The notes under the pieces are model-generated. The model saw only the letters and a list, made by a program, of their open reading frames with translations. It was not told where the DNA came from and did no database searches. Positions 13,865-62,751 of a DNA stretch of 64,000 nt are shown here, one piece after another. Every line of letters starts with the position of its first letter. The stretch's first letter is position 1. The position numbers and the translations under genes were made by a program. Origin of the DNA: Eukaryota sp. GEM-RC1 (Eukaryota); contig JAUFOQ010000017.1 in assembly GCA_040285855.1 (NCBI GenBank), positions 1,302,001 to 1,366,000 of the forward strand. The letters are read 5' to 3'.

Positions 13865-15735
13865 CTTTTTATGGAACAAAAACACTAAAATAGACACAAA
13901 TACTAGAACTCAATATCATAAAAGCAACAATCATTGCCATTAAAACTCACATCAGCTTTTTCTTCATAAAATATACTGAAGCTAATAGAGCTTTCGAAAT
14001 CATGATAGGAATTGTTTTAAATATTGTAAAACAAATATGATTCAACCAAAATTTGAAATCAAATTTCTTGTTCATTCTTTTTGACCACTTTCTCAAAATC
14101 AGAGAGAAAACAAAGAGCATCTCTACCAAGTCGACCATAAATTGAAATTGCAAAAGAACATAATTTGTACTCAACATGTCTAATATGTTTGAGAGCAGTC
14201 AGTGGTTCATCATATTTGTTTCTCTTGTACTGTTCTGAAGAATTCAGTGGAGAAACTTCATTTTTAGCATCCTTGAATGCACTTTTTTGCAAACATCCAC
14301 AGTAATCACATCAACAACGGTTAGTTCATCATTAACTGATGGAACTATAACATCAGCTCTTCGTTTACCAAAAGTCTTATCAGAATAACTATTTTTTGAA
14401 TTATTGATTTCCAGTGATCTCAACAGTGGCTCAACGAAAGATTCGATTTTGTAGGACTTACACATTGCATGAATTTGATCTCTAACAGCATCATGAATAC
14501 AAGTTCTATAAGTAATGAAACGATTGCAACTCAAAAGGCGAGAAAAAGTAACTAATTTACCACATTTACATTGAAGATCATTGGGTAAATTAGAGGGCCA
14601 CAAGAAACATCGAAGTCTGAATGTTGTAGTCCATTGATGATCATTCAACAACAAACCATAGATCTGAGGAATTTGGTTAATCAAAGCAACTGAAGAACTG
14701 TCCTTTAAATCGATTAAAAATTTGCAAAAGCTGGATTTTTTTCTTTGGCCGAGCCAAGTCGAATTTTAAAATCCAGACATTCAAAATGTTTTAAAAGGTG
14801 TTTTTGGAGTTTCTTAAGAGCAAATTTTAACGAGGTGACACATCGTTCTGGTATTTCACAAATATCTGCTGGAAACAAGTTTGCCAGAGGTCAGGTGAAA
14901 TTAGTGACAATTCTGATCTCAAATTTACCAAGAAAAAACTACTTGTCGAAACAAGAAGATTTTCTTGACTTGGGTACCGTCTACAGAAGTCAAAGACAAA
15001 ATTCTTACCACCACCAATGAAAGCAGATTTGGTCCACCATTTAGACGAAGTAAAACCAATACCACCAAGATGAGGATCTGAGAAGATGTGATTGTTCAAA
15101 GCAGCAGGATCCACTGATAACAAAAATGCAAGAAAGTCAGTACGAATTTTGTTAAAGCTTCTACAGAAGTTATAAATAAGGACAGGGGGGAGAGATCGAA
15201 GCAGATGGGTAACTTTTCCTGAATAACAAATTTTTAGCATAAAGAATTTGAGATGTTTTTCCAATTGTAGTTCCTTAATTTGATCTAATTCTTTTCGCAT
15301 TGAATCCAAATATACATTCAGATCTTTAACAATGTTGTCATGTGAACCAAGATAACAACCTAGAAATCTAAAGCTTGAAGATAAATAGTTCACAAAGGGA
15401 ACCTCTAAAGAATTAACAATTAAAGTTACAGGTACCTTGGCAATCAAAAAACATTTTTGCACATTTAATTGAAGTCCAATAGCATCGTACAAATCAGCAG
15501 CCTGATTCGCAATAATACGAAGAGTTGACATAGGAGCAATAAAAGAAATGTCATCCATATAAGCTACGATTTCTAAGTCGGCATGTTCTTCTTTGAGTTT
15601 TTTCAGGATTGGATGAATAGCCAAACAAAAAAAGAAGGGACCAAGAGGATCTCCTTGTTTAACACCAGAAACAGAATTAAGAACAAATGAATTAAAAACT
15701 AAGTCATAAGAGTGACCATAAAAACAATGAAAAAC
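13865..15735 (-). mobile_element. 5'-truncated RLE-type (CRE-like) non-LTR retrotransposon: RT, zinc knuckle and RLE, frameshifted
   Basis: GVKQGDPLGPFFF and AYMDDI RT motifs, FLGCYLG, LGGIGF thumb, CxC..SC..HDAVRD, RRADVIVP..DVITVD..KRNKY. Confidence 0.92.
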
Positions 15736-16433
15736 GCTGATAATTAGTATGATTAAGCATGTTCAAAAAATCGATTTAGCGACTGAATCGTTTTTGGTCA
15801 AACTGTATAGGTTTTGTCCCAAATCCTTTAAAGATAGCAAACACAATTGATTTTTTCTACAATCTAAGACCAAAAGTCCTAACTGTTTACAGATTGGCCA
15901 CACTGACATTTCAAATTGTGACGAAAATTTTCAGGCAAAATTTATGAACGCAAACGACTGTGATTTAATGGCCAAGTGAAAATAAACAGCACACTTGAGA
16001 GAGTTGAGTAATCAAACATGAATCAGAATCAGAGCTGTTAGATCCATCAAACTAGAAATTTGCAGCAGTCCAACGTAATGATCCCTTCTTTCGAAAATAC
16101 TTGTTAGTTTCCCTTTGTATTTGTTCAGATAGAGTTGAAGATTAGTTAAATCATCGTTTTGGACACATGCTCTGGGGAACATTGCGACCAAACGTAACAA
16201 ATATAATTTGTTCAATGGTTGGTTTAAGTCAAAAGACCTGCGCACGAATAAAGTCCATCACTATGGAGTTGTACTGTTGTAGTAATACCCGACTATTTTG
16301 CATATTTTACAATGTTTTTCATAGTTGTTTGCCCATCGTTATTCAGTCATGAGATTCATGTTCCAACATCGTATTTATACCCTATCCGATAATATTTACA
16401 AATAAAACATGAATTGAGCGTGAAGAGGGAGAG

Positions 16434-16967: not shown

Positions 16968-17776
16968 GTTCGATGTGTGATGAAAGTTTAAATTTATTAG
17001 CTTCATGCACATATGCAGTTCTTTCTTTTAGGACACTGCTAGATCTCTCGTTAACGCTAACTCTAATTCCCATTTCTTAAAGTCTTAGACGGCAATAACT
17101 TCCAAGTTGATGTCCAACAAGGTGGTAAATTTGCCACCCATGGTGTGTACTTCTCTTTGATTGTGCCAAATATCTTCCATCTGCACAAGACCCAGTTATT
17201 GGTTATATTGTTGCTCATCCTGAAAGTTTTAAAGTAGGGACATCAGAATTTGCTGCTTTTCCCTTCTTCGGATCCGAAAGCCACACAAAGAATAACTGAC
17301 CTGGTATTCCCATCAATTCTCCCATGTGATCGTGTGACTTTAGCTGAAAAACACGTGGAGCCGGAACCGTATGTCTTCTGATGGTAAATGAACGGGATTT
17401 GGTCATCTTCATCTTGGGTCAATGTCAGAACTCATTGGAACATGATTTTGGTTGAGGTGGCTTAGGCTGTCTATGGGGTACTTTGGATCAAAGCTGATGA
17501 ATGTGAGCATCAGGGTTTTTGTGCAATATTTTAAAATTTGAAATCAAAGAAGTTGTATAATAGTAAACATCCCCAAGATGTTTTGAAGTGATACAAGCCA
17601 ATGACAATGAGGACGTCGAAAGATATTTTCATTAGATAAATACACATATATATTTGACAGACCGTTAAAGGCACATGTTTGCTAAATAAACAACTTCACT
17701 GATACACTGATATTAGTGACTATCTGATAAGTATTGAAGTTATTGCAATCAATAAGAAAATACAGCTAACCATTTA

Positions 17777-18405
17777 TCGTAGGTGTCCCAATACAAACAA
17801 CTTTATATCTTATTCAAGCAGACACATTTGCTTGCTTGTATTGGGACCTTGCTTGTATTGGGACCCTAGTGTACGATAAAGTGACTATACCTTTGTTTTC
17901 AATATATTACAGGACCACACCCTATTTTGTATTTGTAATGTCAAATGCACATTGTATTGTCACGATTGCAAGATCTTACCAGTTGATTATAACAATACAT
18001 AAATGTGCCACAACGTTTAATAACAGTATTTTAATTTGTTCTACAAATACACAACACTTGTCTGTATAGGAGCAAAGTTCTATTGACAGTGATTCTATTG
18101 CCTATAATTTCATAAATTGAATTTCGATATGCCCTTTTGTCCTTCTGATTTTTAAAATCTCAAACAATACAATAGCACCATCGAGTTCTTCGGGCAAAAA
18201 TACGCAACAATAGTAGGCACCCAAGTGGACACTATGAAGTTCGTCCATAGCTCCATGTGTTGTAAATTCGTTTTAAAACACTTTGTATTGAAGTATAACT
18301 TGGCCAACATCCAGTGTATAGAGAATAATACAAACAAACACTTTTACTTGCTTGTATTGGGGCCTTGTTTGTATTGGAACCTTGCTTGTATTGGGACAAC
18401 TACGA
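17777..18405. mobile_element. Tc1/mariner-type MITE
   Basis: TIRs tcgtaggtgtcccaatacaaaca / tgcttgtattgggacaactacga (2 mismatches), each flanked by TA; internal cttgtattgg(g)acc repeats near both ends. Confidence 0.75.
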
Positions 18406-19571
18406 TATTCTACTGTATTAATTCTTTAAAGCAACTCAAATGATCCCTTTGGATCATTAAATTTGCCTTCATTCTGGTAAGTCATCGTGAGGACCAAACA
18501 AATTCTCAAACTCTGGATTAACAGAAGTGAATAGTTGATTAATTGAATCTAAACTTAGTTTTTTGGTGATGACGAATCCTGAATCTTCAATCAATATTTA
18601 ATTTCAATTTACGGCTGAACAACTTTATCACAACAACTGACAAAATCGATACTACACCAGTATTTTTTGACTGCAGTACTCAAAAGATATTAAATGATCT
18701 ACAATTACTCTTGAATCACTCACAATTGGTCTACCAGAACTATCTCATCTTCTAGTTTACGATTCAAATACTTTCGAAAATTATATAACAGTACAATGAA
18801 AAAAATTGCACGTTGAAGAGTATCATTAAAATTGTACATTGATCACGTCATACTGGTCAAAATTCATACATGAACAATTATGATCACACATCACAATTGT
18901 GATCACAATAATTCGACCATTTCTACACTTTGTGATCACAGTGTGATTTGTGAAGTACAACTATGGTTGAAAGTAATCCGTGAGGATCGAGTGAAAGCAC
19001 TTCATCAGCACTTGTTTTATGTTGATTTGGGATTGTTCTTGAGGAAAAGAATGAAGTCGTCAAGAGAGGAGGATTTAGAGATGATTTGTTTGGGAGGGAG
19101 AGATTGTGATGATTGGTTGAGTGAATGAGAGGGATTGATAGCAGGGATTTTGCGTGGGGGTATAGCAGAAGAGCTTTTCATCTAGAATGAGAAAAAAACG
19201 AAAGAGCATACGGAAGATAAGCGACCATAACGTGTAGAAGATGCTAGAGAACGACCAACAGTAGAAGAAGACTGAAATTGTAAGCGCTGAATCAAGTCAG
19301 ATTCAGATGATTCAGACGCCATATATATAGTAGTTTAAGAACGGACAATTTGGGGATGAAGATTTTTTCATAAAGTGAATTCTTTTGATGCATTGAGTTC
19401 TGATATGGAAGTTGTCAGTTCAGGCGTTCCTTTGTTCTACCTTTGTTGCATGGTTTGTTTACTCACTTTTTGTCATTCAAACACGATCACGTGTTTAAGG
19501 ATATAATATCATAATCATATATATAATTTTATATACTCAGCTATACATGTACTTAAAATTAAATAAAGTAA

Positions 19572-20171
19572 TTAAAGTTTATAATTCCTACGTTTTTTCT
19601 TTACTTGGCTGGCCTTTTTCCCCAATTTTCTTTGGGGCTCTGGCAGTTTCATCTGCTGTTTTTGCCTCCGTTGGAAAATTTGTGTTCTCAACCAAGCAGC
19701 CACCGCATCTGGATTATCAAGCGGATCCAGTTCTGGCGGCATGTTCAGCAACTTCAATTTTGCATCACATTTTTTTACAAGATCATAATAATCCATGATT
19801 GCAAACACCTCAGCTTTGTTGTCAATGGGGTGAAGTTCTGGTGGGATGAGATCACGATGGTCATCAAGGGGATTAGAAATCTCACTAGCTAGACGGTCAT
19901 GTTCACGTTGCAGAACATTGGCTCGAATTCTGAGTGATGATAACTGAGAGTGTACATTGCGAGCTACTTCTCCAAGTTCTTGGTATTCCAAGCCTAATTG
20001 AATTGCTTTAACAGCGTCCTGCTGCAGAGGCCAAGTGACTTTATTGATTTGGTTTAGAAGTTGAAGGAATTCAGGAGAAGATGAATCCGGAAGATTTCCT
20101 GATGGATCGCTCACATTAGAAAGAAGTTCTATAAGTTTGTCGTATTCAGATTCTAAGGACTCGAATGACAT
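19572..20171 (-). CDS. Hypothetical coiled-coil protein (weak resemblance to THOC5 N-terminus)
   Basis: 199-aa ATG-initiated ORF with host-like composition and a basic C-terminus. The family assignment is weak. Confidence 0.6.
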   Translation of the reverse strand: MSFESLESEYDKLIELLSNVSDPSGNLPDSSSPEFLQLLNQINKVTWPLQQDAVKAIQLGLEYQELGEVARNVHSQLSSLRIRANVLQREHDRLASEISNPLDDHRDLIPPELHPIDNKAEVFAIMDYYDLVKKCDAKLKLLNMPPELDPLDNPDAVAAWLRTQIFQRRQKQQMKLPEPQRKLGKKASQVKKKRRNYKL

Positions 20172-20248
20172 TAAAGAAGTGGGTGATTAAGAACTCAAAA
20201 TAAGTGTTTCCACACTCTATATGGAACTCTATAGGTTAGAAGAGCTCC

Positions 20249-20825
20249 CTTTCACCTTTCTATCCCCCAATAGCCATAAGGCTATTAAGAGCATACAAAC
20301 AGGATTGAGTTACTCGCTGTATGTTCTTTTGTCTTTTCTTCCTCTTTCTTTCACCTTTCTATCCCCCAATAGCCATAAGGCTATTAAGAGCATACAAACA
20401 GGATTGAGTTACTCGCTGTATGTTCTTTTGTCTTTTCTTCCTCTTTCTTTCACCTTTCTATCCCCCAATAGCCATAAGGCTATTAAGAGCATACAAACAG
20501 GATTGAGTTACTCGCTGTATGTTCTTTTGTCTTTTCTTCCTCTTTCTTTCACCTTTCTATCCCCCAATAGCCATAAGGCTATTAAGAGCATACAAACAGG
20601 ATTGAGTTACTCGCTGTATGTTCTTTTGTCTTTTCTTCCTCTTTCTTTCACCTTTCTATCCCCCAATAGCCATAAGGCTATTAAGAGCGTACAAACAGGA
20701 TTGAGTTACTCGCTGTATGTTCTTTTGTCTTTTCTTCCTCTTTCTTTCACCTTTCTATCCCCCAATAGCCATAAGGCTATTAAGAGCATACAAACAGGAT
20801 TGAGTTACTCGCTGTATGTTCTTTT
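20249..20825 (+). repeat. 99-bp tandem array (~5.8 copies) of a structured RNA-like motif
   Basis: Units start at 20249, 20348, 20447, 20546, 20645 and 20744. Each has a pyrimidine tract, hairpin aatagcc-ataa-ggctatt, and stem aagagcataca/tgtatgttctt enclosing aacaggattgagttactcgc. Confidence 0.95.
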
Positions 20826-20832
20826 CAAGATT

Positions 20833-20874
20833 GATCTTACGCTTTGTGGAGACATTGAATCTAATCGAGGTCCA
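20833..20874 (+). other. 2A (StopGo) peptide, degenerate
   Basis: DLTLCGDIESNRGP; one substitution (CCA>CGA) away from the D(V/I)ExNPGP consensus. Confidence 0.8.
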
Positions 20875-23756
20875 CGGAACAAGACAAAAAGAAGAATCCG
20901 ACCCAACCAGAAAGCGGGATACCATGCATTTGTATCCATCGACAAGGAAGAACCATACTATTGGATCAAGTATGATGAACCGTTACACTTCCAGTCTCAA
21001 TGGCTTGGGATTTTACAAACTACCACAGCCAGATGTAACACCCATGAAGAAGCTGTACAGTTTGCAAAACAAACTATCAAGACAATGACTGAACACGATC
21101 CTGAAGATCCTGAATTAGAAAGATCCCCACCAGACGACCAGCTGTCTCTGAGTAATTGCTACACTGTTCTCGCCACTGGTATTGATCCTCTTCCCAAATC
21201 AGATAGGTTCATTCAAAGACAGGTTGTTCCATTTTGGTCTGAAGATGAAGAGCAACAATTTTCTTCGTCAACTCAAAAAGAACTACTATTTTTGTTTAAT
21301 TTGAAAGATAAAGTCGAGCCTAATACTTCATCGTTTCTTTTTGGTAAGAAATTTTTCAGAAAAAAACCTCAGACGACAAATCAAACGTCCCAGATCCAAC
21401 GACCTAGAAAAACTCCGGTCAGTAGTCTTTTGTACCACTAATGTTCATGTGGTGGAGTTCCAAAAAACAAGCAATCGAAGATACAGAATCAGCTGAAGAC
21501 AAAGAAATAGCTCAAGATGATTCTAGATTCAAGAATGCCAGATGAAATGAAAATTAATTTCAGAGCAAATTTGAATTTACAAACCAAATATTCGGCTGAC
21601 TGGATTGATTTAATTCTGGACGAAGTAACATCTTCATGCTGTCTCGGATTCAAAAATTTCAGCAAACAAGATCTCTTGATGGTTTATTCTTTACAACAAT
21701 CAGTCGAACAAGAAGTGGGATTTGTGACCAATATTCGAATATTATTAGCTGATAGAACGAAGAATCCCACCAGTAGGCCAAATATTAATGGTTGTAAAAC
21801 ATATTTGAATAGAGGTATTTCTAAGGATCTACCAATGTGTGAAGTCAAAGTTCATCAGGCTTTTCAAGAATTTTTGTCTTATGTTCGACAATGTGAGCAT
21901 GTTGGTGAATCAGATATTTTTATGATTGGATCTCTGGCTGACGTGATGGCTGCAAGTCTCAATGTTCATTTTGCAATAGTCAGTAAATATCATCGACTAT
22001 CAAAGACAACTCCCTGGTCAAAGATGTCTGTAATTACCCAAGACCCTATTTGCCCACTTACTGTACTGTTTGCAGTCAAAATCAGTTCTGGTAGTCACTT
22101 TTTGCGCCAAATTTCTGCCATGGTGGATTTAGAAATTCCTTTACGTGTTCAATACCAATTAGGAATTATTCCTAGAGCACCACAACTACCAAGTTGTTTA
22201 AGTTTTAAAACTGATTCAGAACTCTGTCAAAATTTAAATGACTCTCAAAAAAAGACAATTGAAGAAATTGGAAAATTGCATGTAACCTCACCTGGTCTAT
22301 ATGTCATTCATGGAGCACCTGGTACAGGGAAAACAACGACAATTGTCAAATTGATTATGTCTTTTTGTCTAACAAATGCAAGGTTTGGGTAGCTGCTCCA
22401 TCGAATAATGCAGTTGACGTAATATTAGCCAAGCTAGTTGATGAACAGTCAGTTGATGAACAAAAATTGATGCGAATAAGTTCTCAATTACATCCTTTAC
22501 CAGAAGTTCAACCGTTCTTGTTAAGTACAAAGTTAGAACAAAAACAAGCAAAAGAAGAAGCGAAAAAACAAGATGAACAAGATGCTCAAGATTTATTAGA
22601 TCAACAAGCTGTCAGACTTCCTCCACTTAAACAACCAAGAAGGAATATTAAACATGGTCAGCCACATACCACTACACCTGCTGCTCAAGATGAGGAAGAA
22701 GAAAAGGATGATCTTTCGTGGATTTCTGAAGAATATGATGTTCTCTTCACAACATTAGCAGGAGCGAGCAGTTACAGAAATCAAGGTATTTTTAAACCGC
22801 AACTATTAATTATTGATGAGGCCTGCCAGTCAACTGAGCCTGAACTAGTGGCTCCATTACGAATTTGTAATGAATTTACATCCATTGTAATTGTTGGAGA
22901 TCACAAACAATTACCCCCTGTAGTATTCAGTCAAAACTCAGGGTTGTCCAAGTCTTTGATGGAAAGATTGATTGATCAATCTGATTTGACACATCACTTT
23001 GATAGAGAACGCTACACACTACTGAATCCACAATATCGTCAATTCTCAGAATTGTGGGCATTTTCTAATTCAATGTTTTACAGTGATCAAATTGACATTG
23101 TCGAACCAATCACTGGTGAACAATTGACATGTGCCTAAAGACATTTTGTAAATACATGGGGGTCAATTCAAGATTATTCTGAAGAATTGGCAGGTAGTTT
23201 ATTCAACAAACACGAAGCCATTGCTGTTATTAAAGGAGTTTGTGATTTTTTGAAGGATCACAAAGATGCATTGGAAAAAGTTCTCAAGCGTTCATTTAGT
23301 GTGGCAGTGTTGACACCTTACATGGCACAGGTTGATCAACTCAGACAATTGTTTGACTCTATTGAACCACCTTTAGACAATGTACAAATATCAACAACTG
23401 ACGCATTTCAGGGAAAAGAAGTAGATTTTGTATTTGTCAGTACAGTGAGATCCTATCAAGAAGGCAACATTACTCAAAGTCTAGGTTTTTTGACAGATGA
23501 GCGAAGAATGAATGTTATGCTGACAAGAAGCAGGTTTAGTAATTTTATATATGGGCATGAAAAACTTTTACGAACAAATCTGCTTTGGGAGAGTTTAGTG
23601 GATTACTATTCAGCTTCTACTAACGATTACGAATCTGAATTAGACCAAATTCAACGTCGTCGGCAGACTGCACATGCATCTCAAGTATCAGATGAGATTG
23701 TTGATGTCAATGCTGAAGGTTTAGGGAAGTGTTCCCCAAATTTGGGGAAAATGTAG
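20872..23756 (+). pseudogene. Frameshifted Upf1/DNA2/NAM7-like SF1 helicase (~950 aa reconstructed); possible N-terminal RNase H1-N/Cauli_VI-like domain
   Basis: LNDSQ (Q motif), GAPGTGKT, AAPSNNAVD, IIDEACQ, VGDHKQLPP, SLMERL, QYR, LTPYMAQV, TDAFQGKE, RRMNVMLTRSR across ORFs 21517-22392, 22365-23138 and 23187-23756. YHAFV...CNTHEEAVQF follows the 2A. Confidence 0.88.
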
Positions 23757-23896
23757 CAGATCAGTACAAGTGTAGTTCTTGTTGTGTTTTAATTTTTTGT
23801 TTTATAAATGGATTTAATCTTTGTATTGTTTGTTTGTTTTTGCACTTTCATCGTTTTTTTTCAATGACCTGTACCCTAGATCAAGATTTTAGTGAG

Positions 23897-23973
23897 TGTC
23901 ATTACAAATGTTGTATCTACAAATATTGTCATTACAAATGTTGTATCTACAAATATTGTCATTACAAATGTTG
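23897..23973 (+). repeat. 30-bp tandem repeat (~2.5 copies)
   Basis: tgtcattacaaatgttgtatctacaaatat at 23897 and 23927, partial copy at 23957. Confidence 0.9.
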
Positions 23974-24309
23974 AACAAAATCAACATCTATGTTTTGAAA
24001 ATGTAGCAGTAGTTCTTATGTTTTGTTTTATTTATATGAATGTCATTGCGGTGCTCAACAAAAGTAAATGTAAAGATTTTCAACTATAACTCAGTTCAAA
24101 TGAGAAGAGTTTTGACAGAGTGCATATGATGGTGGAGTTAGCTGTAGTGGTTCGTAACACTGGGAAGAAGCTAAATAAACACAGTGAAAGATCACGATTG
24201 AAAGGATCTTCACCTTTTAAGATCATAGGGAGGTGTGCTCATGAAGAGAAGACCAGTACAACATATGATGAAGATGCCATAATGTCAAGTTGTCAGTGTC
24301 AACATCAGC

Positions 24310-24317
24310 TATAAATA
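24310..24317 (+). promoter_or_regulatory. Candidate TATA box for the Fanzor-polyprotein unit
   Basis: tataaata about 50 nt upstream of the first structured motif copy; weak evidence in AT-rich DNA. Confidence 0.3.
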
Positions 24318-24361
24318 GTGGAAATCTTTTTGACCTGTATCATTTTTGTTCCCTTTGTCGC

Positions 24362-24505
24362 TTCCAAACACTGCAAAGTGTTTCGGGTGATAGTAACAGG
24401 ATTAAGTTACTCGCACTATCACCTTTTTCTTCTTATTTGATGCTTTCCAAACACCACAAGGTGTTTCGGGTGATAGTAACAGGATTAAGTTACTCGCACT
24501 ATCAC
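24362..24505 (+). promoter_or_regulatory. Two tandem copies (83-bp period) of the structured RNA-like motif
   Basis: Hairpins aaacact-gcaa-agtgttt and aaacacc-acaa-ggtgttt; stem gtgatagt/actatcac enclosing aacaggattaagttactcgc. Confidence 0.75.
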
Positions 24506-24556
24506 TCGTCATTTCTCAATAGTCATTTGAACCAACCGTCATCACAGTTTGTTCGT

Positions 24557-24598
24557 GATTTAACCACGGATGGAGACATAGAGTCAAACCCTGGTCCT
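24557..24598 (+). other. 2A (StopGo) peptide, intact consensus
   Basis: DLTTDGDIESNPGP matches D(V/I)ExNPG/P. Confidence 0.93.
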
Positions 24599-25230
24599 TT
24601 TGTCACTGAGGAAGAAATCACCACATTGAAACCCTCCGTATGGCTCGATGATTCTGTTGTTGACTTTTATGGTGAGTACATCACCGAGAATAGTGAGTTA
24701 TGCCAGTTTTTCCGTATCGGGAATCTTCATGCTGCAGTGAGTTATGGCAATTTTGACACATTAGCTCTTGAATTTCTAAATGTTCAGAATTCAATGCGAG
24801 AGACTGGGAAAAGGTTTTTATTTATTCCAATAAACGATGGTGTCTTTCGTGATACAGCAACTCATTGGACTCTACTTGTTTGTGACATTGATAGTACGTC
24901 ATTTTTTTCACTTGATCCAATGTACACTGACAGTTCAACTCAACTTTCATTTGACGTTTTAACTCAAAATGATCAAGTTGTAAGTACATTACAGGAATAT
25001 TTGCGTCATTTTGGAAATTTTTCAAATTTAGGAAAGCTCCCAGTTATTAAACATCAAACTCCCAACGACTGTGGACCATATATCTTAATGTATATGCAAC
25101 GATTTGTTCATTTGGCATCAACATCAGACAATTTCCAGGAAATTTTGTCTCAAGTCCAAGGTTATGTCGATTATGATGCTTTTAACATGAGAAAACAAGT
25201 TCTAAATCTGATAGCAACCACGCATCCTAT
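24596..25230 (+). pseudogene. Ulp1/SENP-like C48 cysteine protease domain 1 of the polyprotein
   Basis: WLDDSVVDFY, FLFIPIND, THWTLL (His), SLDPM (Asp), QTPNDCGPYI (Cys). Confidence 0.88.
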
Positions 25231-25571
25231 TCCTTTTGCTATACTTGCTGTAAGTATTGTACATGAGTACTTTTCAAACAACATTCAAGCACATGTTCAA
25301 GAACACAGTGCCATAGTTCATTCTTCACCTGGTACTTCTGAAATAGCCGAACATCCAACAGCAATTTTATCTCCTGATGAAACTCGACAAGTGCCATTGA
25401 CTATACCCAATCAACTTATGGACTCAAATCTTACAAGGAAAACTCGTCAATCTAGAAAATATCCTCCAAAAAAGAAGAAGTTTTCTCAAAAATATCAAAT
25501 TATACAACATCAACATCGTGGAATTCTAACACAATCTCGTCCTAGACCACTTTTACTAAGATCTGATTAAA

Positions 25572-26210
25572 TTGACACACTGGAAACCCAATGTACTGCT
25601 TCATGATTCTGTCATTGACTTTTTTGGTCAGTACATTGCTCAAAAGAGTAATCGATGTGAATTCTTTGAAGTAGCGAACATTCAAGATGCAATCAATCTT
25701 TCACAATATAACATAATGTTTGAACAATTTAGAGAAGTTCAATTATCAATGGAAAAGTCCAGTAAAAGACACACTAAAAAGTGTAAGAAACGTTTCTTGT
25801 TTATTCCAATAAATGACGGTCTCTTTGGTACAACAGCCACTCACTGGTCACTGTTAATCTGTGATATTGAAAACAAACAGTACTTCTCTATTGACTCAAT
25901 GTGTACAGAAGATCAACAATCTCAGTTTTCTAACACTTTATCACGTATTGACAATATCATTTCACAATTACAGCAATTCCTGTTTGATATGGCAAATTTC
26001 AGCTATATAGCTAGAGTACCAGTTCAACAAGTCCAAACTCTTAATGACTGTGGTCCATTTATTCTAATGTATATGAATAAATTTGTCGAGTGTGAATCAA
26101 CATCAACAAATCTTTTCGAAATTCTGTCTAAAGTCTCTAATTGTGTTGTTTATAATGCCTTAGAAATGAGAAAACAAATATTGTCTCAAATCGTTACTAC
26201 TCACCCTGAT
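25572..26210 (+). pseudogene. Ulp1/SENP-like C48 cysteine protease domain 2 (internal duplication)
   Basis: LHDSVIDFF, FLFIPIND, THWSLL, SIDSM, QTLNDCGPFI; colinear paralogue of domain 1. Confidence 0.88.
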
Positions 26211-26599
26211 GAAGATCACCCTGATGAATACCGACAATATGTATGTACTCATGCCCAAGGTATTTTAAATGAGTTTTATTCTGATGAGATTGAATCACCT
26301 GTTAATCAACCTGTACAGTGTCAATCTGAAAGTTTAACTCCTGAAACAATGGTAGATGATAGTAGTTACAAGGAAACGGTATCAAAGCTCACTTATCAAA
26401 ACTTTCTCAAAAGTTTACCTGGCAATTTGTCTAATCGGAAAAGAAGCGTCTTTTGAAGTTAAAAATGATTGAACAAGCGCTGGAAGAAGCTGAAGATTTA
26501 TTTCAAGAAAGTTATCATAACTTTAGTCGTCCAGAGTTGACAGATCTTCCAGAAATACATTTACCAACTCCAAAAATAAATGTTGCTGCTTGTGAGAAA

Positions 26600-26755
26600 C
26601 CTGATACAACAGAAACAGCAGAAACAATTGAGTCATCTGAAACCACTGAAACAACAGAAGCAACAGAAACAATTGAGTCATCTGAAACCACTGAAACAAC
26701 AGAAGCAACAGAAGCAATTGAATCATCTGACACAGCAGAAACAACAGCAGCAACA
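26600..26755 (+). repeat. Thr/Glu-rich tandem linker repeat
   Basis: gaaacaattgagtcatctgaaaccactgaaacaacagaagcaaca repeated; encodes (ETIESSETTETTEAT)n. Confidence 0.85.
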
Positions 26756-26904
26756 GGTAATAGAAAGACAACAGTTGCCAAAAGGAAAACCACCAAACCA
26801 AAAGCAAGTGGAGTATCAAATGCGACAAAGAGTTTGAAACCTCCTAAAAAGCCAATTATTGAGTTTCTGAAACATTCCCAATTACCAAATAACTCTAATC
26901 ATTG

Positions 26905-27640
26905 TTCAATATTGTCTTTTGATATTGAAACTAGAGAAATTGATCAAATTCCTGCAGAAACACTTACAGAGTAGTTGGATGATCAAAGAAGGAACGAGAA
27001 TGAATCTCTCAAAATGAACAGTGACGCAGAAAAAGAAGTGTGGATTCAAAACCAACAAGTTTTTATGATTTCTGGAGTGTTTGATCATTTTATAAAAGAT
27101 CAATTTTACCTTCAAGACAATTTTGTTGCAACTTTAGAGTTGACTCATGAATCTGATGTTGAACTGCCACCTGATTGTAGAAACCTTCGATTTTTTGAAA
27201 ACGAAAAACAGTTACTAGAGTTTTTTGTCAACTATTTGAATGATAAAAATCCCTCAGTTTTAACTGGATTTAACATAACTGATTTCGATAATGTTATTTT
27301 AGGCAACAGGATTGTTACACTTGGAGTCGACTTTCCAGAACCAATGCTAGATGAAACAACAAAATCTCATTTATCATCTCTATGGCAAAATGTTTGTTCT
27401 GAATGGGCTGGTAGAATTGTCTGTGATTCATACGTTTATGCTAAGCAATTTATTGTTTCCAAAATGTTCAAAGTCTTTAAGATCATTAAGTTGGTTTTTA
27501 TTAAACGAATCTAAAGGACGTCTTCATGACGAATTTCACCACTTATTGCCTATTGATTGTGTTGTTGAAAGACCTCAAGAAGTTGTGAACTATTGCTTCA
27601 AAGATAGTGTACTAGCATTGAAGTTGTTTTTATTATTTCA
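26905..27640 (+). pseudogene. PolB-type DEDDy 3'-5' exonuclease domain of the polyprotein
   Basis: ExoI LSFDIET, FENEKQLLEFF, ExoII LTGFNITDFD, DSYVYAK, SLRSLS, ExoIII NYCFKDS; in-frame TAG at 26972-26974 and one frameshift. No polymerase domain follows. Confidence 0.85.
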
Positions 27641-27649
27641 ATCAAATAA

Positions 27650-29775
27650 AATCGTTCGTCCAACTTTTGTAACACATAAGACTACTCTAAAGTCTATTGT
27701 CAAACATTTTGGATTAACGTTATTACTCGATTATTATGCTCAATTGGTTCACAAACTTAGAATGCATACTTCCTATTTTTTGAAGTTGTTTTTATTACAC
27801 ATGGATAAGATTGGTGAAAAATTACCTTTAATTACAAGGAAAGAAGTAGAACATATTCAAACTCTGTTAAGAAACATCTCTGCTGAACATCATGAGATTG
27901 AATTATGTAATCAAGGACGACCTCCTACATTTAATGAACACTTGAAAAACTTTGTTTCAGAAGAATACAAACAAGTGATGCTCAACAATGGAGGAATTCC
28001 ACTCTTCCAGCTGCTCATTCCTCACGGCTTATGGCAATGGTTGGTGAAACTATTGAATCGAACTTGGACACAAACATTAAAATGCGATATGCTCAATACA
28101 TTGACAAATTTATTAATGTTTATTTTCAAAAGACTGATCAAGAAGAAACAATGTCAAAAAAAGAACAGTCTGTTTTTCGTTGGAGACTAAGACAAGTTAA
28201 AAATGTCTTTCTTGAAGGTAACAGAAATGACATTCCAAAAACCCCTGCAGAAATAAAACAATTTATTCAAAGACGTAATACAGAAATTCTTCAAGACGAC
28301 AGTAATGGAAGTTTGAACATTGCAGGTAAAATTAAACTTCTATGGGCAACTAACGACTATGTTGAAGGATTGTTTAGAGATAAATATTTTATTGATGTTC
28401 TCTTCCCACCATCAATTGATGTTCAAAATGCTAATGGTGTTTATAAAAAGAAAGTCGTTAAATCTCTACTAAAATCAGTTCGTGAACATCCCCAGTCCTT
28501 TATTAAATCTGCGATTCAAATAAATAACTATCTTGAAAGTGAAGGAGCAAGTGCTTACAATGTAATTCCTATTGTTCGTCACGTCACACCAGGTTTCTTT
28601 GAAATAGACACACAAGGTCTTTGGGGAATATTACGTTCCACTTTGTCAACAAAACAAGTGAATGTCAAGAAGAAAATGTCTGAGTGGAACACAAAAGTTG
28701 AAATTGAACACATGTCTCCTGTTGAACAAAAATCAATTCTGGTCCTACTTTTTCAACTTTAATCGTCCATTTATAAAGAAAGGTTATAAGTTTAACAATA
28801 CCATTAAAACTGATGGTTTCTCTGCCTGTGTTGAACTTACCAGAGAGGACTGTGTGGGAATGTCCTTTAAACCAGACAGTGCAAAGTTCTCCAGTAAAGA
28901 AGAATATGTTCAAGACTATGATATTGAAGAGTTTTCATTGAAAACAAAAGTGTTTATTGACCCTGGAAAACAGATTTACTCTATTTTTGTTCAGAGAAAG
29001 TAAATAGGCCATTTCCTGAACAAAAAGCCCGTGAAATGAGAAACAAAGAATACGAGTGGCGGAGATTGACAGAGACAGAATGGTCCAGATGGTCAAGGGT
29101 CCATCAAAAGTTTAGAAGGGGAAAGAAAAAAGAATTCATTCTCCGAGATGGAAAGACAGTTGAAGAAGAAGAGTCAACATTGTCCAAAGAAAATTCGAAA
29201 TCCACTCTTTATGACACATTCTATGACTATGTGAGTTCCAAACTAACAGTTATTGAATCAACATTTGATTACTACTGTTTGATGATATGGCGCATTCAAA
29301 AATGCAAAGATACGTCCATATTCAAAAAACAGAAAGTAAGTTGTTGAAAAATATGACTGCAAAAGGATGGAATAAAAATGACTGTGTATTGATGTTTGGT
29401 GACAATGGTAATAAGAGGCAGAACCTAAAACACCTCCGATCAAGTAGAGGTGTGGGTTGGAGAAACTTCTTTAAGAGAAATGGTTTTAACATCGTTCTTG
29501 TAGACGAGAGTTACACGTCTTCAAAGTGTCCTACTTGTTGGAAGCCAGTTAAAGTGTTCAAAGAAATCAGTAATCCAAAACCATGGAAAAGAGAGAAGAA
29601 ACCTCTGGTAAAGTGTCACGCTTTGTTGAGATGTAAGTCCCAAGAATGTAGAGAAGAATGTCATGGTAGCGCCAAGGTTTGGAATCGTAACAAGTTGGCA
29701 TGTATCAACATCAAAACCATTGTGGAGCATCATTTGGAGCGGGGTCTAGGAGTTAGACCCAGTTATTTGTCATAG
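27650..29775 (+). pseudogene. Fanzor (eukaryotic TnpB-like, Fanzor1-type) RNA-guided nuclease domain, frameshifted
   Basis: KTTLKSIVK, FLKLFLL, EIDTQGL, IKTDGFSACV, RuvC-I FIDPG (D at 28959), FGDNG, RuvC-II VDESYTSSKCPTC (E at 29506), zinc finger HALLRC..EC, RuvC-III WNRN (normally NRD; 29689) ..ACINI. Confidence 0.88.
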
Positions 29776-29945
29776 TCATAGTCATAGCCTTTATTTACTA
29801 CAGTGAATCTGTAGCATTATTGAATCTTCATACATTAAAGCCTCAGTACTTCCAACCTTTTCAAGAACTGATGTAGCAAAAGGAATGAGGATTCACATTG
29901 TAGTAAATGATTTACATTATAAGGCATAATTCTACCTCTCTGGAT
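29776..29945 (+). ncRNA. Putative Fanzor omegaRNA (scaffold ~29787-29925, followed by flank-derived guide)
   Basis: Nested stems directly after the Fanzor stop: gcctt/aaggc; atttactacagtgaatc (29793-29809) / gattcac-at-tgtagtaaat (29890-29908); inner cctca/tgagg and cctttt/aaaagg. Confidence 0.65.
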
Positions 29946-29955
29946 TAGACCAGTG

Positions 29956-32253
29956 ATGTCCAAAATCGACAACGTTTCCTCAAATCAATGTCTTGATGAC
30001 TGCAGTTCCTCTTTATCTACCCTGTCGTCTTGTTCTTCCTCTGTGGGGACGATCCTTGATTCCTCTTCAGTTTCTTCCTGTGTGACAGACACATCTTCTG
30101 GGTCGATTCATTTTCAGTCTTCTCTACTACTATTGATCAATACCCACTTGCATTACGATCTTCGTTTTCCCTCTCAGTTGATGGAGTGGATTCATCAGTA
30201 TTCAAAAGAAATTGGTTATGTTAGCCGTCGCTTCTTTGAATTGTACTTGTCGTCAGTCAAAGTGGTTCTTGAAACAAATGCTATTGAAGTCCGTTCCAGT
30301 CACCTCCCCCTCCTTCTTTCGTTTGCTTCTTTCTTTTCAGCAAATGTACAATCTGTTTTGTTAGACACCCACCAGTATGAACTTTGCGAATCACTCATTC
30401 TTAATCATAATACAATTATTTCTGGTGTCACAATGGTGCTTAATCATGATTTAGATTATACATCTGACTCATTTTTCAAGTTTTGTGATGGATTGTTCGA
30501 TTCTTCTTCTACCATGTCCCTCCCTAGTCTTAAACGTTTAAAAATCATTAATAATGGATCCGGTTTGTTGAATGGTATTGTTTCTGGACTAATAAGTAAT
30601 AATACTTTGCTAGAATTGTCTGTTTCTGAAGTTTCCACGATGTATGAAATTTGGACCCTTGAAAAGATCTTTTCCTCAAACAAAACACTCAAAATAGTTA
30701 CTCTAGCTGATTTGTGGGGTTTAGACATTATGTCATCTTTTTATATGTCCATTTTTAATAGTTCGAGTATTAGAGTCCTTACTGTGTCAGCTACATGTCT
30801 TGATTTTGATGTATGTAATGCTCTGAAAACCAATTTGGTACTGAAAGAACTCACTGTTATTTGTAATTACCTGAAAGAAGAAGCTAAAGGTCTCTCGGAG
30901 GTGATCAAAGGGAACTCATGTTTGAAAAAACTAGAGCTAAGGGATTATAACTATGATTTAACATCAATTATTAGGTCCTTTGAAACAAATTCTTCTTTAT
31001 CAGAATTGGTAATTTCCAAATGTGAGTCATCGCATCATGTAAGTTTTACTGACATGGAGGTTCAGTCGTTAGAAGAAATGGTGCAAAAGAATACTGGTTT
31101 ACTTGTTTTAGGTATTAGTACTCAATGTTTCAATTCTTTTCAGCTTAAAAATGTACTTTTAGCAACGGAACATAATCAAATACTTAAGAAAGTGATCCTT
31201 GGTTTTTCTAATTTTTTCTTAGACCCTTGCTCTGATTTATGCTGTTTAATTGCAGTTTATGAATCAATGGTTATTAAACCACTGTCTTGTCATGTTGATG
31301 TTGATCCTCACTTTGTTGACGTTGAAAATAGTGTGTTTTGTTTTTCACCAAAACGATGCACTCAAATTACAGACGAAGAAGTCTCATCTCTTAAATATTT
31401 TGTGAAGAGTTTTTGCATCAAAGAGCTTACTCTCAGTGGTTGTAGTTTTACCGATGAAGCGATTACTGCTTTGTGTGATTTAATCAAGGATACTGAGTCA
31501 TTGACCTCTATTGACTTAAGTTCTCTCACTGTTGTGAAGCGAGATTCTCATCATGACTCTGATCACGATAACTCTGTTGTTAACAACTCCTTTTCTTGCA
31601 CTGAATATTCAGATGATGAAAGATCTTCCACTCAATTCTTTCTTCCCGATTGGTCTGACAAGGAACTTTCTGATGATCATTTTTGCAAAATAGTTAAGGC
31701 ACTGCAGTTCAATTCTGGTTTAAATAATGTTGATCTTAGTAATAGTATTAGTGGTTTCAATACTCTTTTGACTGTTTTTGAACTAATCTCATTGAGCAAA
31801 TTACCACCCACTATTGATGTTTCCCCCCATTATATATGTAGTGAAGATGGTGTGCTTGACTTTTCTCCCAAAGGTCGTTCCAAAATAACTTGCCAGGAAA
31901 TCTCGTACATGCGGTCTCTTATGGATTGTTTTAGTATTGAGTCGCTTGTCCTTTGTGGTTGTAGCATTTTTGACGAAACTTTTTCTCATTTGTGTGATTT
32001 AATCAAAGGCAATAATTCTTTGACTCTTATTGACCTGAAATCCTGTTGTTTTGATGATGATACGTTTAGTTATGATCCATTGGAAAGCATTTTCGAAAAA
32101 TATATGGATTCTGAGACTGTCGTGGCATTAGTAAATGCACTGGAAGACAATTACACTATTTCTTTGATACTGCTTCACAGTGATTCCATCGATTCTGAAA
32201 CTGTTGAGTACGTGAATGAAGTCCGTGAGGATAGGATAATATGTTATTTATGA
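29956..32253 (+). CDS. RNI-like leucine-rich repeat protein
   Basis: Long intact ORF with repeated NxxLxxLxL / LTSIDLS / LTLSGCSFTDE motifs and a Ser-rich N-terminus. Confidence 0.82.
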   Translation: MSKIDNVSSNQCLDDCSSSLSTLSSCSSSVGTILDSSSVSSCVTDTSSGSIHFQSSLLLLINTHLHYDLRFPSQLMEWIHQYSKEIGYVSRRFFELYLSSVKVVLETNAIEVRSSHLPLLLSFASFFSANVQSVLLDTHQYELCESLILNHNTIISGVTMVLNHDLDYTSDSFFKFCDGLFDSSSTMSLPSLKRLKIINNGSGLLNGIVSGLISNNTLLELSVSEVSTMYEIWTLEKIFSSNKTLKIVTLADLWGLDIMSSFYMSIFNSSSIRVLTVSATCLDFDVCNALKTNLVLKELTVICNYLKEEAKGLSEVIKGNSCLKKLELRDYNYDLTSIIRSFETNSSLSELVISKCESSHHVSFTDMEVQSLEEMVQKNTGLLVLGISTQCFNSFQLKNVLLATEHNQILKKVILGFSNFFLDPCSDLCCLIAVYESMVIKPLSCHVDVDPHFVDVENSVFCFSPKRCTQITDEEVSSLKYFVKSFCIKELTLSGCSFTDEAITALCDLIKDTESLTSIDLSSLTVVKRDSHHDSDHDNSVVNNSFSCTEYSDDERSSTQFFLPDWSDKELSDDHFCKIVKALQFNSGLNNVDLSNSISGFNTLLTVFELISLSKLPPTIDVSPHYICSEDGVLDFSPKGRSKITCQEISYMRSLMDCFSIESLVLCGCSIFDETFSHLCDLIKGNNSLTLIDLKSCCFDDDTFSYDPLESIFEKYMDSETVVALVNALEDNYTISLILLHSDSIDSETVEYVNEVREDRIICYL

Positions 32254-38063: not shown

Positions 38064-38966
38064 TCACTCATGACCAACCTTAATATCTAACATGGTTTTG
38101 GTAAATCCTTTCAACAACGACAGTTTCTCAAGAAGTGACTCATCACCGGCATCAAGTCGCTGCAAATGAGATTCAGAGAGATTAAAAAAAGACGAAACTC
38201 TAGTAAATAAATCAGTTAGAGCCAGATTCGCACTACTAATTGTAGCTAAATGATGTTGAACATTTCTAGTTCTAGCAAACAATGAATGCTCAAGTTGATC
38301 ATTCTCAGCGATCAAAGTATCTAACCTCTGCCTTATCTTATGCGTCTTATTATCATTAACAAGCTGAGTACTAAGCAAAGCGTCATCATCAAACACGGAG
38401 CTAGAAAAGTGTTCAGCGGACTGACTTTCCAGTTTCTCTTGTTGTTGCTGGAGCTGTTCGTTGGTGCGTTGAAGGGCGGTGTATCGGTTCATTACGTCCT
38501 TGGTAGAGGAAAAGTCCGAGGATATCATAATAACAGACTCTATGTAGTTCTTGTAGGGATCAAGGGCACTGAGAGAAGCTTGGAGGGAGTGAACTTCTGC
38601 ATTTAAGTCGGATAAGGTCTGTTTAGCTTCTTTAATTTCGGTTTCTAGTAGAGCAATGGCATGTCTCTCTGCATCAAAACGTTTGTGAGCACGGTGTAGT
38701 TTTGCAAGAGCTTCTTTTGGGTTTGAGGATTTTTTGGTGTTGGCAAAAGATTGTTGTTTGGCTATGAGTTCAGATTCCAGAACATCTAGAGCAGCTGACT
38801 GTTCTCTGTAGATTGCCCTCACTCGTTCAAGTTCCTGATGAGCATCACGTTCTCGTTGTCGAGTTTCAAGAAGTTTTGTTATTGTTGATTCGACATTGAG
38901 AGGTTGTAGTAAGTTGTGACAATTAGTTTCTTCATAACCAGTAGTTGTGATGAAGGATGAAGGCAT
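38064..38966 (-). CDS. CCDC42/CFAP73-like (DUF4200) coiled-coil ciliary protein
   Basis: TKLLE..E..L..R; YKNYIESV..DFSSTKDVMNRYTAL..TNEQL; coiled-coil throughout. Confidence 0.7.
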   Translation of the reverse strand: MPSSFITTTGYEETNCHNLLQPLNVESTITKLLETRQRERDAHQELERVRAIYREQSAALDVLESELIAKQQSFANTKKSSNPKEALAKLHRAHKRFDAERHAIALLETEIKEAKQTLSDLNAEVHSLQASLSALDPYKNYIESVIMISSDFSSTKDVMNRYTALQRTNEQLQQQQEKLESQSAEHFSSSVFDDDALLSTQLVNDNKTHKIRQRLDTLIAENDQLEHSLFARTRNVQHHLATISSANLALTDLFTRVSSFFNLSESHLQRLDAGDESLLEKLSLLKGFTKTMLDIKVGHE

Positions 38967-39915: not shown

Positions 39916-40010
39916 TATTTAAGTGGAATTTTGAACTACAATTTGAAGACTATGGTATCTTCGACAAGTTTAACTGACGAACGTAATCAAACAATTAATT
40001 TATCTGTGGA

Positions 40011-49220: not shown

Positions 49221-49299
49221 CAAGCAGTGAACCAATGAAAGTTCATATTATATGAAACATATTTCTCAGCAATAAAGACAGTTTATTGATGGAGGGTAC

Positions 49300-54230: not shown

Positions 54231-54269
54231 GGTTCCAAGTGAAATCATATTTCTCTTGACACTTTGGAG

Positions 54270-56138: not shown

Positions 56139-56146
56139 ATCAGAAC

Positions 56147-56733: not shown

Positions 56734-56759
56734 ATTGTACCTGTCAACATTCAATTGGT

Positions 56760-58466: not shown

Positions 58467-58514
58467 CACGACATATTAATAATAAATAGACCAAGAAATA
58501 AATTTATCGATGCT

Positions 58515-59570: not shown

Positions 59571-59585
59571 AAAATAAAATCATTT

Positions 59586-60245: not shown

Positions 60246-60325
60246 TTTTCAAAAATATAATCATTTTTATACTCTAATAATCTTTGCTCTATTTCTGTAA
60301 ACATCATTAATTCCCCTCGATCCAA

Positions 60326-61862: not shown

Positions 61863-61869
61863 TCATCAA

Positions 61870-62745: not shown

Positions 62746-62751
62746 AGAAGT

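Follow-up and report, generated by a model that had tools for sequence, protein, structure and literature searches.

Two genes, each headed by a structured tandem leader and a 2A-like sequence, lie side by side on the + strand of a 64,000-nucleotide stretch from Eukaryota sp. GEM-RC1, here called the window. The first encodes a helicase, the second a pair of proteases, an exonuclease and a Fanzor-like nuclease. A preliminary description had taken both for one insertion with a helicase-assisted, RNA-guided effector. We asked what the helicase unit is and whether it travels with the Fanzor unit. Judged from its sequence, it represents a repeated Upf1-like helicase gene, broken in this copy, that is headed by a folded leader and a 2A-like motif, and the evidence leans against joint travel with Fanzor.

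The helicase unit

Pfam and PDB matches identify a broken Upf1-like SF1 helicase core at 22234..23756 on the + strand, with a stop at 23754-23756. All core motifs occur in order on this strand: LNDSQ (22234), GAPGTGKT (22312), APSNNAVD (22395), IIDEACQ (22809), VGDHKQLPP (22893), TDAFQGKE (23397) and RMNVMLTRSR (23505). AAA_11 (E 6.6e-30) and AAA_12 (E 9.9e-30) were detected as well, split over the broken frames, and the full SF1 motif set reported before is thus confirmed. From what is known of the family, the protein is presumably a 5'-to-3' ATP-driven nucleic-acid translocase.

The earlier label Upf1/DNA2-like holds for Upf1, but DNA2 fits poorly: in PDB comparisons, which place the protein by bit scores and not by a tree, the C-terminal copy P0017 scored 66.5 bits with Upf1 and 31.8 with DNA2, and a second comparison gave 42 and 29. 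A nuclease domain, the hallmark of DNA2, was not found by Pfam in the ORF pieces of the unit, and CH and R3H domains were not detected in the same way. The closest PDB subfamily differs with the part of the helicase, being Upf1 for two parts and SMUBP-2 for a third.

The stretch 20221-23756, previously read as one gene, is not one ORF but is interrupted by three 1-nt frameshifts and one nonsense codon. Comparison with the copy P0043 revealed compensating 1-nt shifts near 21428, within a linker at 21101..21516 (+), and near 21533. The third shift lies near 22362, where P0039 reads through, and a TAA stands at 23136-23138 where P0017 has Lys. Since all three shifts fall in short base runs, they could be assembly errors; the assembly of the named relatives combines Nanopore and Illumina data (PMC11316075).

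The region before Walker A (21517..22233, +) is kept in six named paralogues at 36-96% identity. It has no Pfam match, and Foldseek with its AF2 model (pLDDT 41) returned nothing significant. Atlas leads are DUF6469, SMUBP-2 1B, UPF1 1B and ZNFX1 clusters (0.88-0.91, 97-120 shared features, TM 0.53), and on these modelled resemblances the region is likely the stalk/1B of an Upf1-like helicase.

Directly after the 2A, a small segment of three predicted strands plus a helix (20875..21100, +) had been compared with the Cauli_VI/RNase H1 N-terminal domain. Searches did not support this resemblance: there was no Pfam match at E<=5, no PDB sequence match at E<=10 and no PHROG match. Its AF2 model (pLDDT 41) gave no significant fold match (best Z 2.8, Atlas 0.75), and integrase arm-binding-like rows appear below the bar. 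No Rep, nuclease or transposase was found in 20875-22230 with Pfam, PHROGs, PDB sequences, Foldseek and VIA-align, the fold searches being uninformative here because both AF2 models have a pLDDT of 41. A Pfam scan of 16 ORF pieces likewise showed no RT, Rep or transposase domain, in agreement with the preliminary description.

Three units in the window are headed by the same type of 2A. The 2A of the Fanzor unit (GDIESNPGP) and a relic at 40928 both satisfy the motif GD[V/I]ExNPG-P, in which substitutions lead to loss of activity (PMC3708506). The 2A-like (StopGo) motif of the helicase unit (20830..20874, +) reads GDIESNRGP at 20848-20874, one codon off and outside the motif, and is predicted to be inactive or impaired in this copy. 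The observation that the helicase is preceded by the same RNA motif as the Fanzor unit and by a 2A holds for the leader loop common to both units, but the 2A is of the NRGP and not the NPGP form.

The leader of the helicase unit (20249..20825, +) was characterized by TRF, folding z and pair counts. It consists of 5.8 tandem copies of a 99-nt unit with 99% matches (TRF), is stop-free and is in frame with the 2A (ORF 20191-21441). Each unit holds a 7-bp hairpin and an 11-bp stem around a conserved 20-nt loop, and the monomer, 66 nt long, is a short, co-varying predicted RNA structure. The 20-nt core of the motif occurs eight times in the window, against a chance expectation of 0.01; six of the copies precede the helicase and two the Fanzor unit. 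The Fanzor-unit leader (24362..24510, +) has two monomers spaced by 83 nt with the same loop and re-paired stems: 11 of the 18 stem pairs are changed on both sides, a comparison of two independent lineages only. With so many pairs differing, the two leaders must have diverged long ago. Folding z is -3.5 to -3.7 on the + strand and -3.6 and -3.8 on the minus strand, so that folding energy favours neither, while G-U pairs at four positions on the + strand fit an RNA structure. A different type of tandem leader is carried by four of six named 2A-Ulp1 proteins, and, from these sequences, leaders appear exchangeable between units.

The leader matched no Rfam family; two chance-level matches lie elsewhere in 19500-30500, and the Fanzor-unit leader region (24300-24600) had no match at E<=10. 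By-eye fits to the consensus of hammerhead, twister, pistol and HDV-like folds failed. Because Rfam gave no match and the HDV-like fold did not fit by eye, the leader is not the L1Tc element. Motif scans found it in no viral contig and no prokaryotic genome, and two metagenome matches were taken as chance since only the loop matched and the stems were absent. A monomer outside the Rfam families is a candidate for self-cleavage or promoter activity.

Downstream of the helicase, a 30-nt tandem repeat of 2.6 copies (23897..23973, +) is a possible 3' tail of the unit. Unusual structure was not found in the spacer between the units (23750-24360, folding z +0.8).

Dispersed copies of the helicase

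The helicase family comprises eight other named fragments on four contigs, all from records named Eukaryota sp. GEM-RC1, which are 38-96% identical and never full length. These copies are known as proteins, and none of the eight covers the leader or 2A region. Three near-identical fragments are scattered 56-640 locus tags apart, and the 2015 candidates included no full-length member (441-2000 aa). The unit thus behaves like mobile DNA, as had been proposed, and not like a conserved single-copy host gene. When the region before Walker A was searched against a library of 1.84 billion proteins, eight matches were obtained, seven of them in GEM-RC1-named records; the eighth, P0042, was dropped as a low-complexity artefact, and relatives from other organisms were not found in this library.

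The old paralogues, at 41-65% identity, retain 193-258 aligned residues per predicted protein. In simulated neutral point mutation to 44-51% identity, an open stretch of at least 190 codons survived in 5 and 20 of 2000 runs. The divergence was therefore likely under selection, as in replicating subfamilies, an argument weakened by possible splicing in the predicted gene models.

The Fanzor unit and the flanks of the block

The helicase unit lies, as described before, on the same strand and about 0.6 kb upstream of the Fanzor unit (helicase stop 23756, first Fanzor-unit monomer 24362), and both are indeed built on one plan of structured tandem leader, in-frame 2A-like motif and cargo. In the Fanzor unit, a 2A with intact motif (24572-24598) is followed by two Ulp1/C48 protease domains (24572..26456, +; Pfam C48, E 2.9e-9 and 1.8e-12). 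The pair is frameshifted near 25585 in this copy and forms one 764-aa ORF in P0026. Next, spread over several broken pieces, come a PolB-type exonuclease domain (DNA_pol_B_exo1, E 2.6e-13) and the Fanzor-like nuclease to which it is joined (26465..29775, +). The Fanzor-like part matches Cas12f1-like_TNB below its cut-off (E 8e-4) and has RuvC-like motifs, and in P0033 the exonuclease and the region after it form one protein. The Fanzor-unit copies seen are mostly 85-97% identical. A long imperfect stem after the Fanzor stop (29786..29925, +; whole-region z only -1.8) is a candidate for the guide-RNA scaffold and the right end of the unit.

The two units had been described as filling the gap between divergent host ATGs. 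The ATGs at 20171 (-) and 29956 (+) do face apart, and a second divergent pair in the window is indeed 17 bp apart (34444/34462), but the left gene is repeated and its status as an ordinary single-copy host gene is unsupported. It is a 199-aa ORF (19572..20171, -), divergent from the helicase unit, with 130/133 identity (98%) to the truncated copy P0014 and a weak coiled-coil (E 0.02) as its sole Pfam match; it is possibly cargo or a duplicated host gene. To its left lies a leader remnant of the second type of 2A-Ulp1 elements (19409..19506, +). Leaders of P0019, P0025 and P0026 match 19422-19505 at 89% (tblastn, E 1e-10 to 3e-10), model R1 matches 19475-19532 (E 0.0055), and an 11-mer at 19409 recurs at 24287, which was equalled in 6 of 400 controls.

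Does the helicase travel with Fanzor?

The boundary argument for one insertion fails, since the left gene is repeated and beyond it lies what remains of a leader of the other type. Neither TIR nor TSD brackets the block; the longest match between left and right is 9 nt and is not at the ends.

Copy numbers point the same way. In matched look-ups, the Fanzor-unit ORFs had 15 other cluster members over five ORFs and the helicase two over four, so there are too few young helicase copies to partner most copies of the Fanzor unit. Synteny was measured from the locus tags of named proteins: none of the eight helicase fragments lies within 100 tags of the 20 Ulp1/exonuclease fragments, a count of low power, and the nearest is 112 tags away. 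This is weak evidence owing to sparse sampling, since the 20 Ulp1/exonuclease fragments themselves rarely share a locus (gaps of 6, then at least 50 tags). From the linkage counts and the copy imbalance, a Cas3- or DinG-like effector is not supported, and the helicase likely works independently of the adjoining Fanzor unit.

A passenger cassette and its alternatives

We slightly favour the view that the helicase unit is a passenger cassette, now decayed, from a lineage-specific mobile family of leader-2A-cargo design. It would be mobilised in trans and, although it adjoins the Fanzor unit, is likely independent of it. In an intact copy, the leader monomers would act as the element's own promoter and/or 5' RNA element, ribosomes could start anywhere in the stop-free leader frame, and the 2A skip would free the helicase, about 960 residues long, with a clean N-terminus. 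The helicase would then remodel or protect the element's RNA rather than act as a Cas3-like partner. Having no transposase of its own, the cassette would borrow one. By analogy with L1Tc/NARTc, the preferred donor would be the RT-bearing non-LTR elements common in the window, where an RT domain was found at 14830-15762 (E 9e-11). LINE trans-mobilisation usually needs 3' similarity between partner and LINE; no clear similarity was seen between the helicase 3' region and the RT elements of the window. TSD, TIR and poly(A) tail were not found at the locus, which is one copy whose ends are not fixed.

Other transposon classes were considered. A TIR DNA transposon was rejected as there is no TIR or TSD around the block, and an autonomous non-LTR retrotransposon as the Pfam scan found neither RT nor endonuclease in 20221-29775. 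On the Helitron/Helitron2 test, there is no Rep domain and the helicase is Upf1-like; termini are not fixable from one copy.

At roughly half that standing, the helicase unit may be the variable 5' module of one Fanzor-element subfamily, so that helicase, proteases, exonuclease and RNA-guided nuclease move together, with functional coupling optional. The units share a strand with no terminus found in the 0.6 kb between them, their leaders are both of the rarer type and identical in the 20-nt loop, and known Fanzor1 elements such as MCi-2 combine constant 3' with variable 1-3 kb 5' parts and lack TIRs (PMC3627910). Against this, leader array and 2A are separate in the two units, the leader stems diverged long ago, no helicase fragment was found near a Fanzor-unit fragment, the block is without TSD or TIR, and helicase subfamilies reach down to 38% identity, well beyond the Fanzor-unit copies. 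A bolder version is improbable: the leader-2A would be a portable expression adapter (a structured, possibly self-cleaving RNA monomer plus StopGo) for any cargo of a transposase-free family, one subfamily of which co-delivers the Upf1-like helicase with the protease pair and the exonuclease-Fanzor fusion, together forming an RNA-guided nuclease assisted by a helicase. Joint travel of helicase and Fanzor, if true, would give eukaryotes a counterpart of the helicase-assisted CRISPR effectors.

It is also improbable that the copies belong to an expanded lineage-specific host Upf1-like family, serving RNA surveillance or anti-transposon defence and rich in pseudogenes, and that an insertion merely gave this copy its transposon leader-2A. 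Upf1-like helicases are host-type proteins, the old paralogues show selection, the adjoining 199-aa gene is likewise duplicated, and no other copy has been seen with a leader or 2A, as the fragments do not cover that region. However, the 2A is in frame with the helicase N-terminal segment, the leader is a distinct re-paired version rather than a fresh copy of that in the Fanzor unit, and the missing full-length member and the dispersal of near-identical fragments also speak against a host family.

It is very unlikely that both units are left over from an endogenous large DNA virus, or from a Polinton-like element, using 2A-led genes: the 2A motifs are virus-like (PMC3708506), Fanzor1 occurs in large dsDNA viruses (PMC3627910) and the exonuclease matches phage DNA-polymerase PHROGs, but in IMG/VR neither the helicase middle nor the Fanzor C-terminus has a relative and only two distant generic helicase loci were found (24-34% identity), the leader motif is absent from viral contigs, the block has no capsid, packaging or polymerase-core gene, the copies are dispersed singly, and this one appears to sit among ordinary host genes and to lack viral hallmark genes.

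Comparison with known systems

In the literature searched, no prior description of a 2A-led Upf1-like helicase cassette was found, nor of one leader-2A design heading different cargoes. The word helicase never occurs in the main texts of PMC10530073 and PMC10711439, and this 2A and organism do not appear in the accessible supplements of two 2A surveys.

The closest parallels are L1Tc/NARTc and Ingi, 2A-bearing APE-type non-LTR LINEs of trypanosomatids, in which a structured 5' element is followed by an in-frame N-terminal 2A-like sequence, 2As are decayed in old copies, and non-autonomous partners have a common 5' element (PMC5814959, PMC3708506). Their cargo is APE-RT, whereas here it is a Upf1-like helicase or Ulp1 proteases; the leader here is tandem, exchangeable and, by Rfam, not HDV-like, and RT, poly(A) and TSD were not found at this locus.

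The unclassified Fanzor1 elements MCi-2, MCi-5 and CMe-1A and the non-autonomous Helitron2 families CRe-1/2/3 resemble the block in their 3' Fanzor, lack of TIRs and of a working transposase, variable 5' regions and many copies (PMC3627910). The accessible part of that paper mentions for them neither a 2A or Ulp1 nor an exonuclease fusion or a Upf1-like helicase ('Ulp1' and 'exonuclease' each occur 0 times in its main text), and MCi-2 has 11-12-bp TSDs, whereas none was found at the helicase/Fanzor block.

From host Upf1 (NAM7), Sen1 and IGHMBP2/SMUBP-2, with which it has in common all core motifs, the best PDB sequence matches and likely the 1B/stalk, the helicase differs in being multi-copy, broken and without a clear nearest subfamily. 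Helicases and other enzymes are known as non-essential passengers of mobile elements: a viral SF1 helicase in TRAS/Jockey LINEs (PMC6338049), SNF2 in Inton/Enton, RecQ in Academ and DEDDh in P/piggyBac (cited in PMC3627910). Here, by comparison, the helicase belongs with Upf1, Sen1 and IGHMBP2 and has a leader-2A unit to itself instead of being built into a transposase or RT polyprotein. Each part of the cassette has its precedent, in 2A-led LINE ORFs, passenger helicases and transposase-less Fanzor1 elements.

The helicase unit

The helicase unit (20221-23756, + strand) consists of a tandem leader, a 2A-like motif and a helicase. The 2A-like motif, which ends at 20874 with the residues GDIESNRGP, lies in the frame that passes through the leader copies, a frame free of stops. 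The SF1 motif set named in the preliminary description was recovered as ordered motifs from 22234 to 23534, and AAA_11 and AAA_12 scored well over the Pfam cut-offs. Among solved structures, the middle part of the helicase matched Upf1/NAM7 best (42 bits; DNA2 29). The relative P0017, a C-terminal copy, scored 66.5 bits with Upf1, 57.2 with Sen1, 50.1 with SMUBP-2 and 31.8 with DNA2, and the best match of a second relative, P0039, was SMUBP-2. Judged by these comparisons, the helicase is Upf1-like without a distinct subfamily; its earlier designation as DNA2-like was not borne out, DNA2 scoring below Upf1 both times. The segment 21517-22233, previously a candidate for a hidden Rep or nuclease, had no Pfam match; its Atlas leads, to be taken as leads only, were 1B/DUF6469 regions of Upf1-like helicases (0.88-0.91, TM 0.53), and its AF2 model was poor (pLDDT 41). 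For the Cauli_VI domain suggested at 20875-21100, support was lacking throughout (Pfam, PDB sequences, PHROGs, Foldseek, VIA-align and Atlas); three strands and one helix are predicted there with low confidence.

As read from its sequence, the helicase gene is broken, not intact. Comparison with the relative P0043 showed that the apparent stops at 21439 and 21508 are the product of a pair of 1-nt shifts, near 21428 and near 21533, that compensate each other. A third frameshift lies near 22362, a site across which P0039 is open, and a TAA at 23136 corresponds to Lys in P0017. Once these breaks are allowed for, about 960 codons extend from the 2A to the stop at 23756. All three frameshifts lie in short base runs and may have arisen in the assembly; decay is suggested by the two substitutions, namely the nonsense codon and NRGP.

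The leader RNA

In the leader of the helicase unit (20249-20825), a 99-nt unit occurs 5.8 times head to tail, its copies being 99% alike. The same RNA motif indeed precedes both the helicase unit and the Fanzor unit (24362-29775, + strand): a 20-nt core occurs eight times in the window (expected 0.01), six times with the helicase and twice with Fanzor. Each monomer forms a hairpin of 7 bp and, closing the conserved loop, a stem of 11 bp (z -3.5 to -4.6). In the stems of four monomers, which represent two independent lineages only and from which the structure itself was derived, 71 of 72 cells are paired and both sides have changed in 11 of 18 pairs; the covariation score was reached by none of 500 shuffles, and pairing in slid controls was 31-49%. 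G-U pairs at four positions of the + strand fit a sense-strand RNA. The leader had no Rfam match, and its core was absent from the viral and prokaryotic collections; two metagenome matches to the core lack the leader stems and were rejected. TATA-like words, read without a control, are located 50-60 nt upstream of the first leader hairpin of each unit (20217-20224 and 24309-24316).

Copies of the helicase and linkage to the Fanzor unit

The region of the helicase preceding Walker A was scored against 1.84 billion representatives, resulting in eight matches, one of them an artefact and seven in records named Eukaryota sp. GEM-RC1 (38-96% identity). With cluster look-ups included, eight named helicase fragments on four contigs were found. 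None of 2015 candidates was a helicase relative of 441-2000 aa closer than 28%, and 394 shorter ones yielded no further relative except one 40% partial match. Old paralogues align over 193-258 residues with 41-65% identity. When neutral change to 44-51% identity was simulated, 190 open codons were kept in 5 and 20 of 2000 runs, an argument for selection that has to be read with possibly spliced gene models and an annotation limited to long models. We infer that the helicase forms several subfamilies, whose divergence took place under selection and which have left broken copies behind; the copy pattern would be that of a mobile passenger or of a fast-turnover gene family.

The Fanzor unit consists of two ORFs, 2A-Ulp1-Ulp1 (intact in the relative P0026) and exonuclease-Fanzor. 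They are spaced by 8 nt (26456-26465) and named copies start or end at those points, suggesting a two-ORF transcript. The third RuvC-like motif (29680-29694) reads WNRNK, its Asn being one base from the usual Asp; this reflects either decay or a nuclease-dead family. Within 29764-29925, (TCATAG)x3 at the Fanzor stop is followed by a long imperfect stem, a candidate guide-RNA scaffold.

Twenty named Ulp1 or exonuclease fragments were found on eight contigs. Matched cluster look-ups gave 15 other members for five Fanzor-unit ORFs and 2 for four helicase ORFs, with 5 of 10 sequences of one query set, all Fanzor-part pieces or alternative starts, absent from the collection. Four of the six named proteins showing sequence before the 2A carry a different tandem leader, and two the type of the window. 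Thus, a young helicase partner is impossible for most Fanzor-unit copies, and these copies exchange leaders. None of the eight helicase fragments has one of the 20 Ulp1/exonuclease fragments closer than 100 locus tags (nearest 112), a weak test because these 20 are almost never at a common locus, so that many copies are unseen. Three helicase fragments, plus a fourth, have no such fragment on their own contig. The main rival explanation, a Fanzor subfamily whose variable 5' module is the helicase, has a precedent in MCi-2 (PMC3627910) and is favored by the rarer leader type being common to both units; we regard it as rather unlikely. The proposed Cas3- or DinG-like coupling of helicase and nuclease gained no support as a functional coupling in this analysis.

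Boundaries and neighboring elements

Both units had been taken as one insertion filling the gap between two divergent ATGs. These ATGs and the 17-bp divergent pair are real; however, that a gap is filled does not imply a single insertion, since other divergent gaps in the window measure 2.3-6.2 kb and several contain mobile relics. The supposed host gene on the left (19572-20171, - strand) has a truncated, 98% identical copy elsewhere. Farther out, a fragment of the other leader type is found (19409-19506), and the 11-mer preceding this fragment recurs upstream of the Fanzor-unit leader (6/400 controls). No TIR or TSD brackets the helicase and Fanzor block, and the locus gives the appearance of related elements piled upon one another. 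The same type of 2A occurs a third time (GDVESNPGP), at 40928 within 39900-41000 (- strand), without leader motif. The start after it, past a frameshift, is marginally Ulp1-like (4/300 shuffles), and short repeats flank the region (39750-39829 and 41328-41401).

Non-LTR-like relics are present at 14608-15762, 49319-50632 and 61826-62750 (- strand). RVT_1 was detected at 14830-15762 (E 9e-11), 14608-15536 and 61826-62750 are 93% alike, and the C-terminal endonuclease type was judged by eye only. Repeats of one family, sharing a common end, occupy 38905-39919, 44226-45246, 47587-49224, 52580-54239 and 246-630; the copy at 44226 includes the first part of the gene at 38966 (- strand), a part that looks like captured flank, and a decayed DEAH-like helicase motif was seen by eye near 47700. 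The window also contains hAT-like transposase pieces (55300-56764, + strand; Dimer_Tnp_hAT E 1e-6, DUF659 E 9e-13), a small MITE-like element (17775-18407) with 26-nt inverted ends (92%) and internal 17-nt repeats, and a possibly foreign or viral run of low GC (25-32%) at 57789-61862 with ORFs 15-80 nt apart, most without Pfam match.

A possible mode of mobilization

In the helicase unit leader, 2A-like motif and cargo share one frame; copies are dispersed and leaders exchangeable. No mobilizing enzyme was found in the cassette. We somewhat favor the explanation that it is a passenger of a leader-2A-cargo mobile family: the leader would supply promoter and/or RNA functions, the 2A would trim off any leader peptide produced, and the cassette would be mobilized in trans. 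Within this explanation, a LINE would be the preferred donor of the machinery, with about an even chance, because of the RT domain of the non-LTR-like relic, but at the locus neither a TSD nor a tail or shared 3' end speaks for it. The helicase may be an accessory RNA remodeler, as has been argued for viral helicases of insect LINEs (PMC6338049).

Literature searches returned nothing relevant on the leader-2A-helicase/Fanzor combination. Searched by term, the main text of two Fanzor papers (PMC10530073 and PMC10711439), whose supplements could list this Fanzor, and the main text and supplements of two 2A surveys (PMC13405545 and PMC12338488) showed no such element. The locus is of value chiefly for its leader RNA, still unclassified, and for its modular plan of leader, 2A and cargo. 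The design nearest to this plan is L1Tc/NARTc: there, a 77-nt stretch that serves both as promoter and as ribozyme precedes an in-frame 2A, and tandem copies are kept apart by the ribozyme (PMC5814959, PMC3708506). The helicase cassette is genuine, though decayed, and represents a lineage-specific variant of mobile designs already known.
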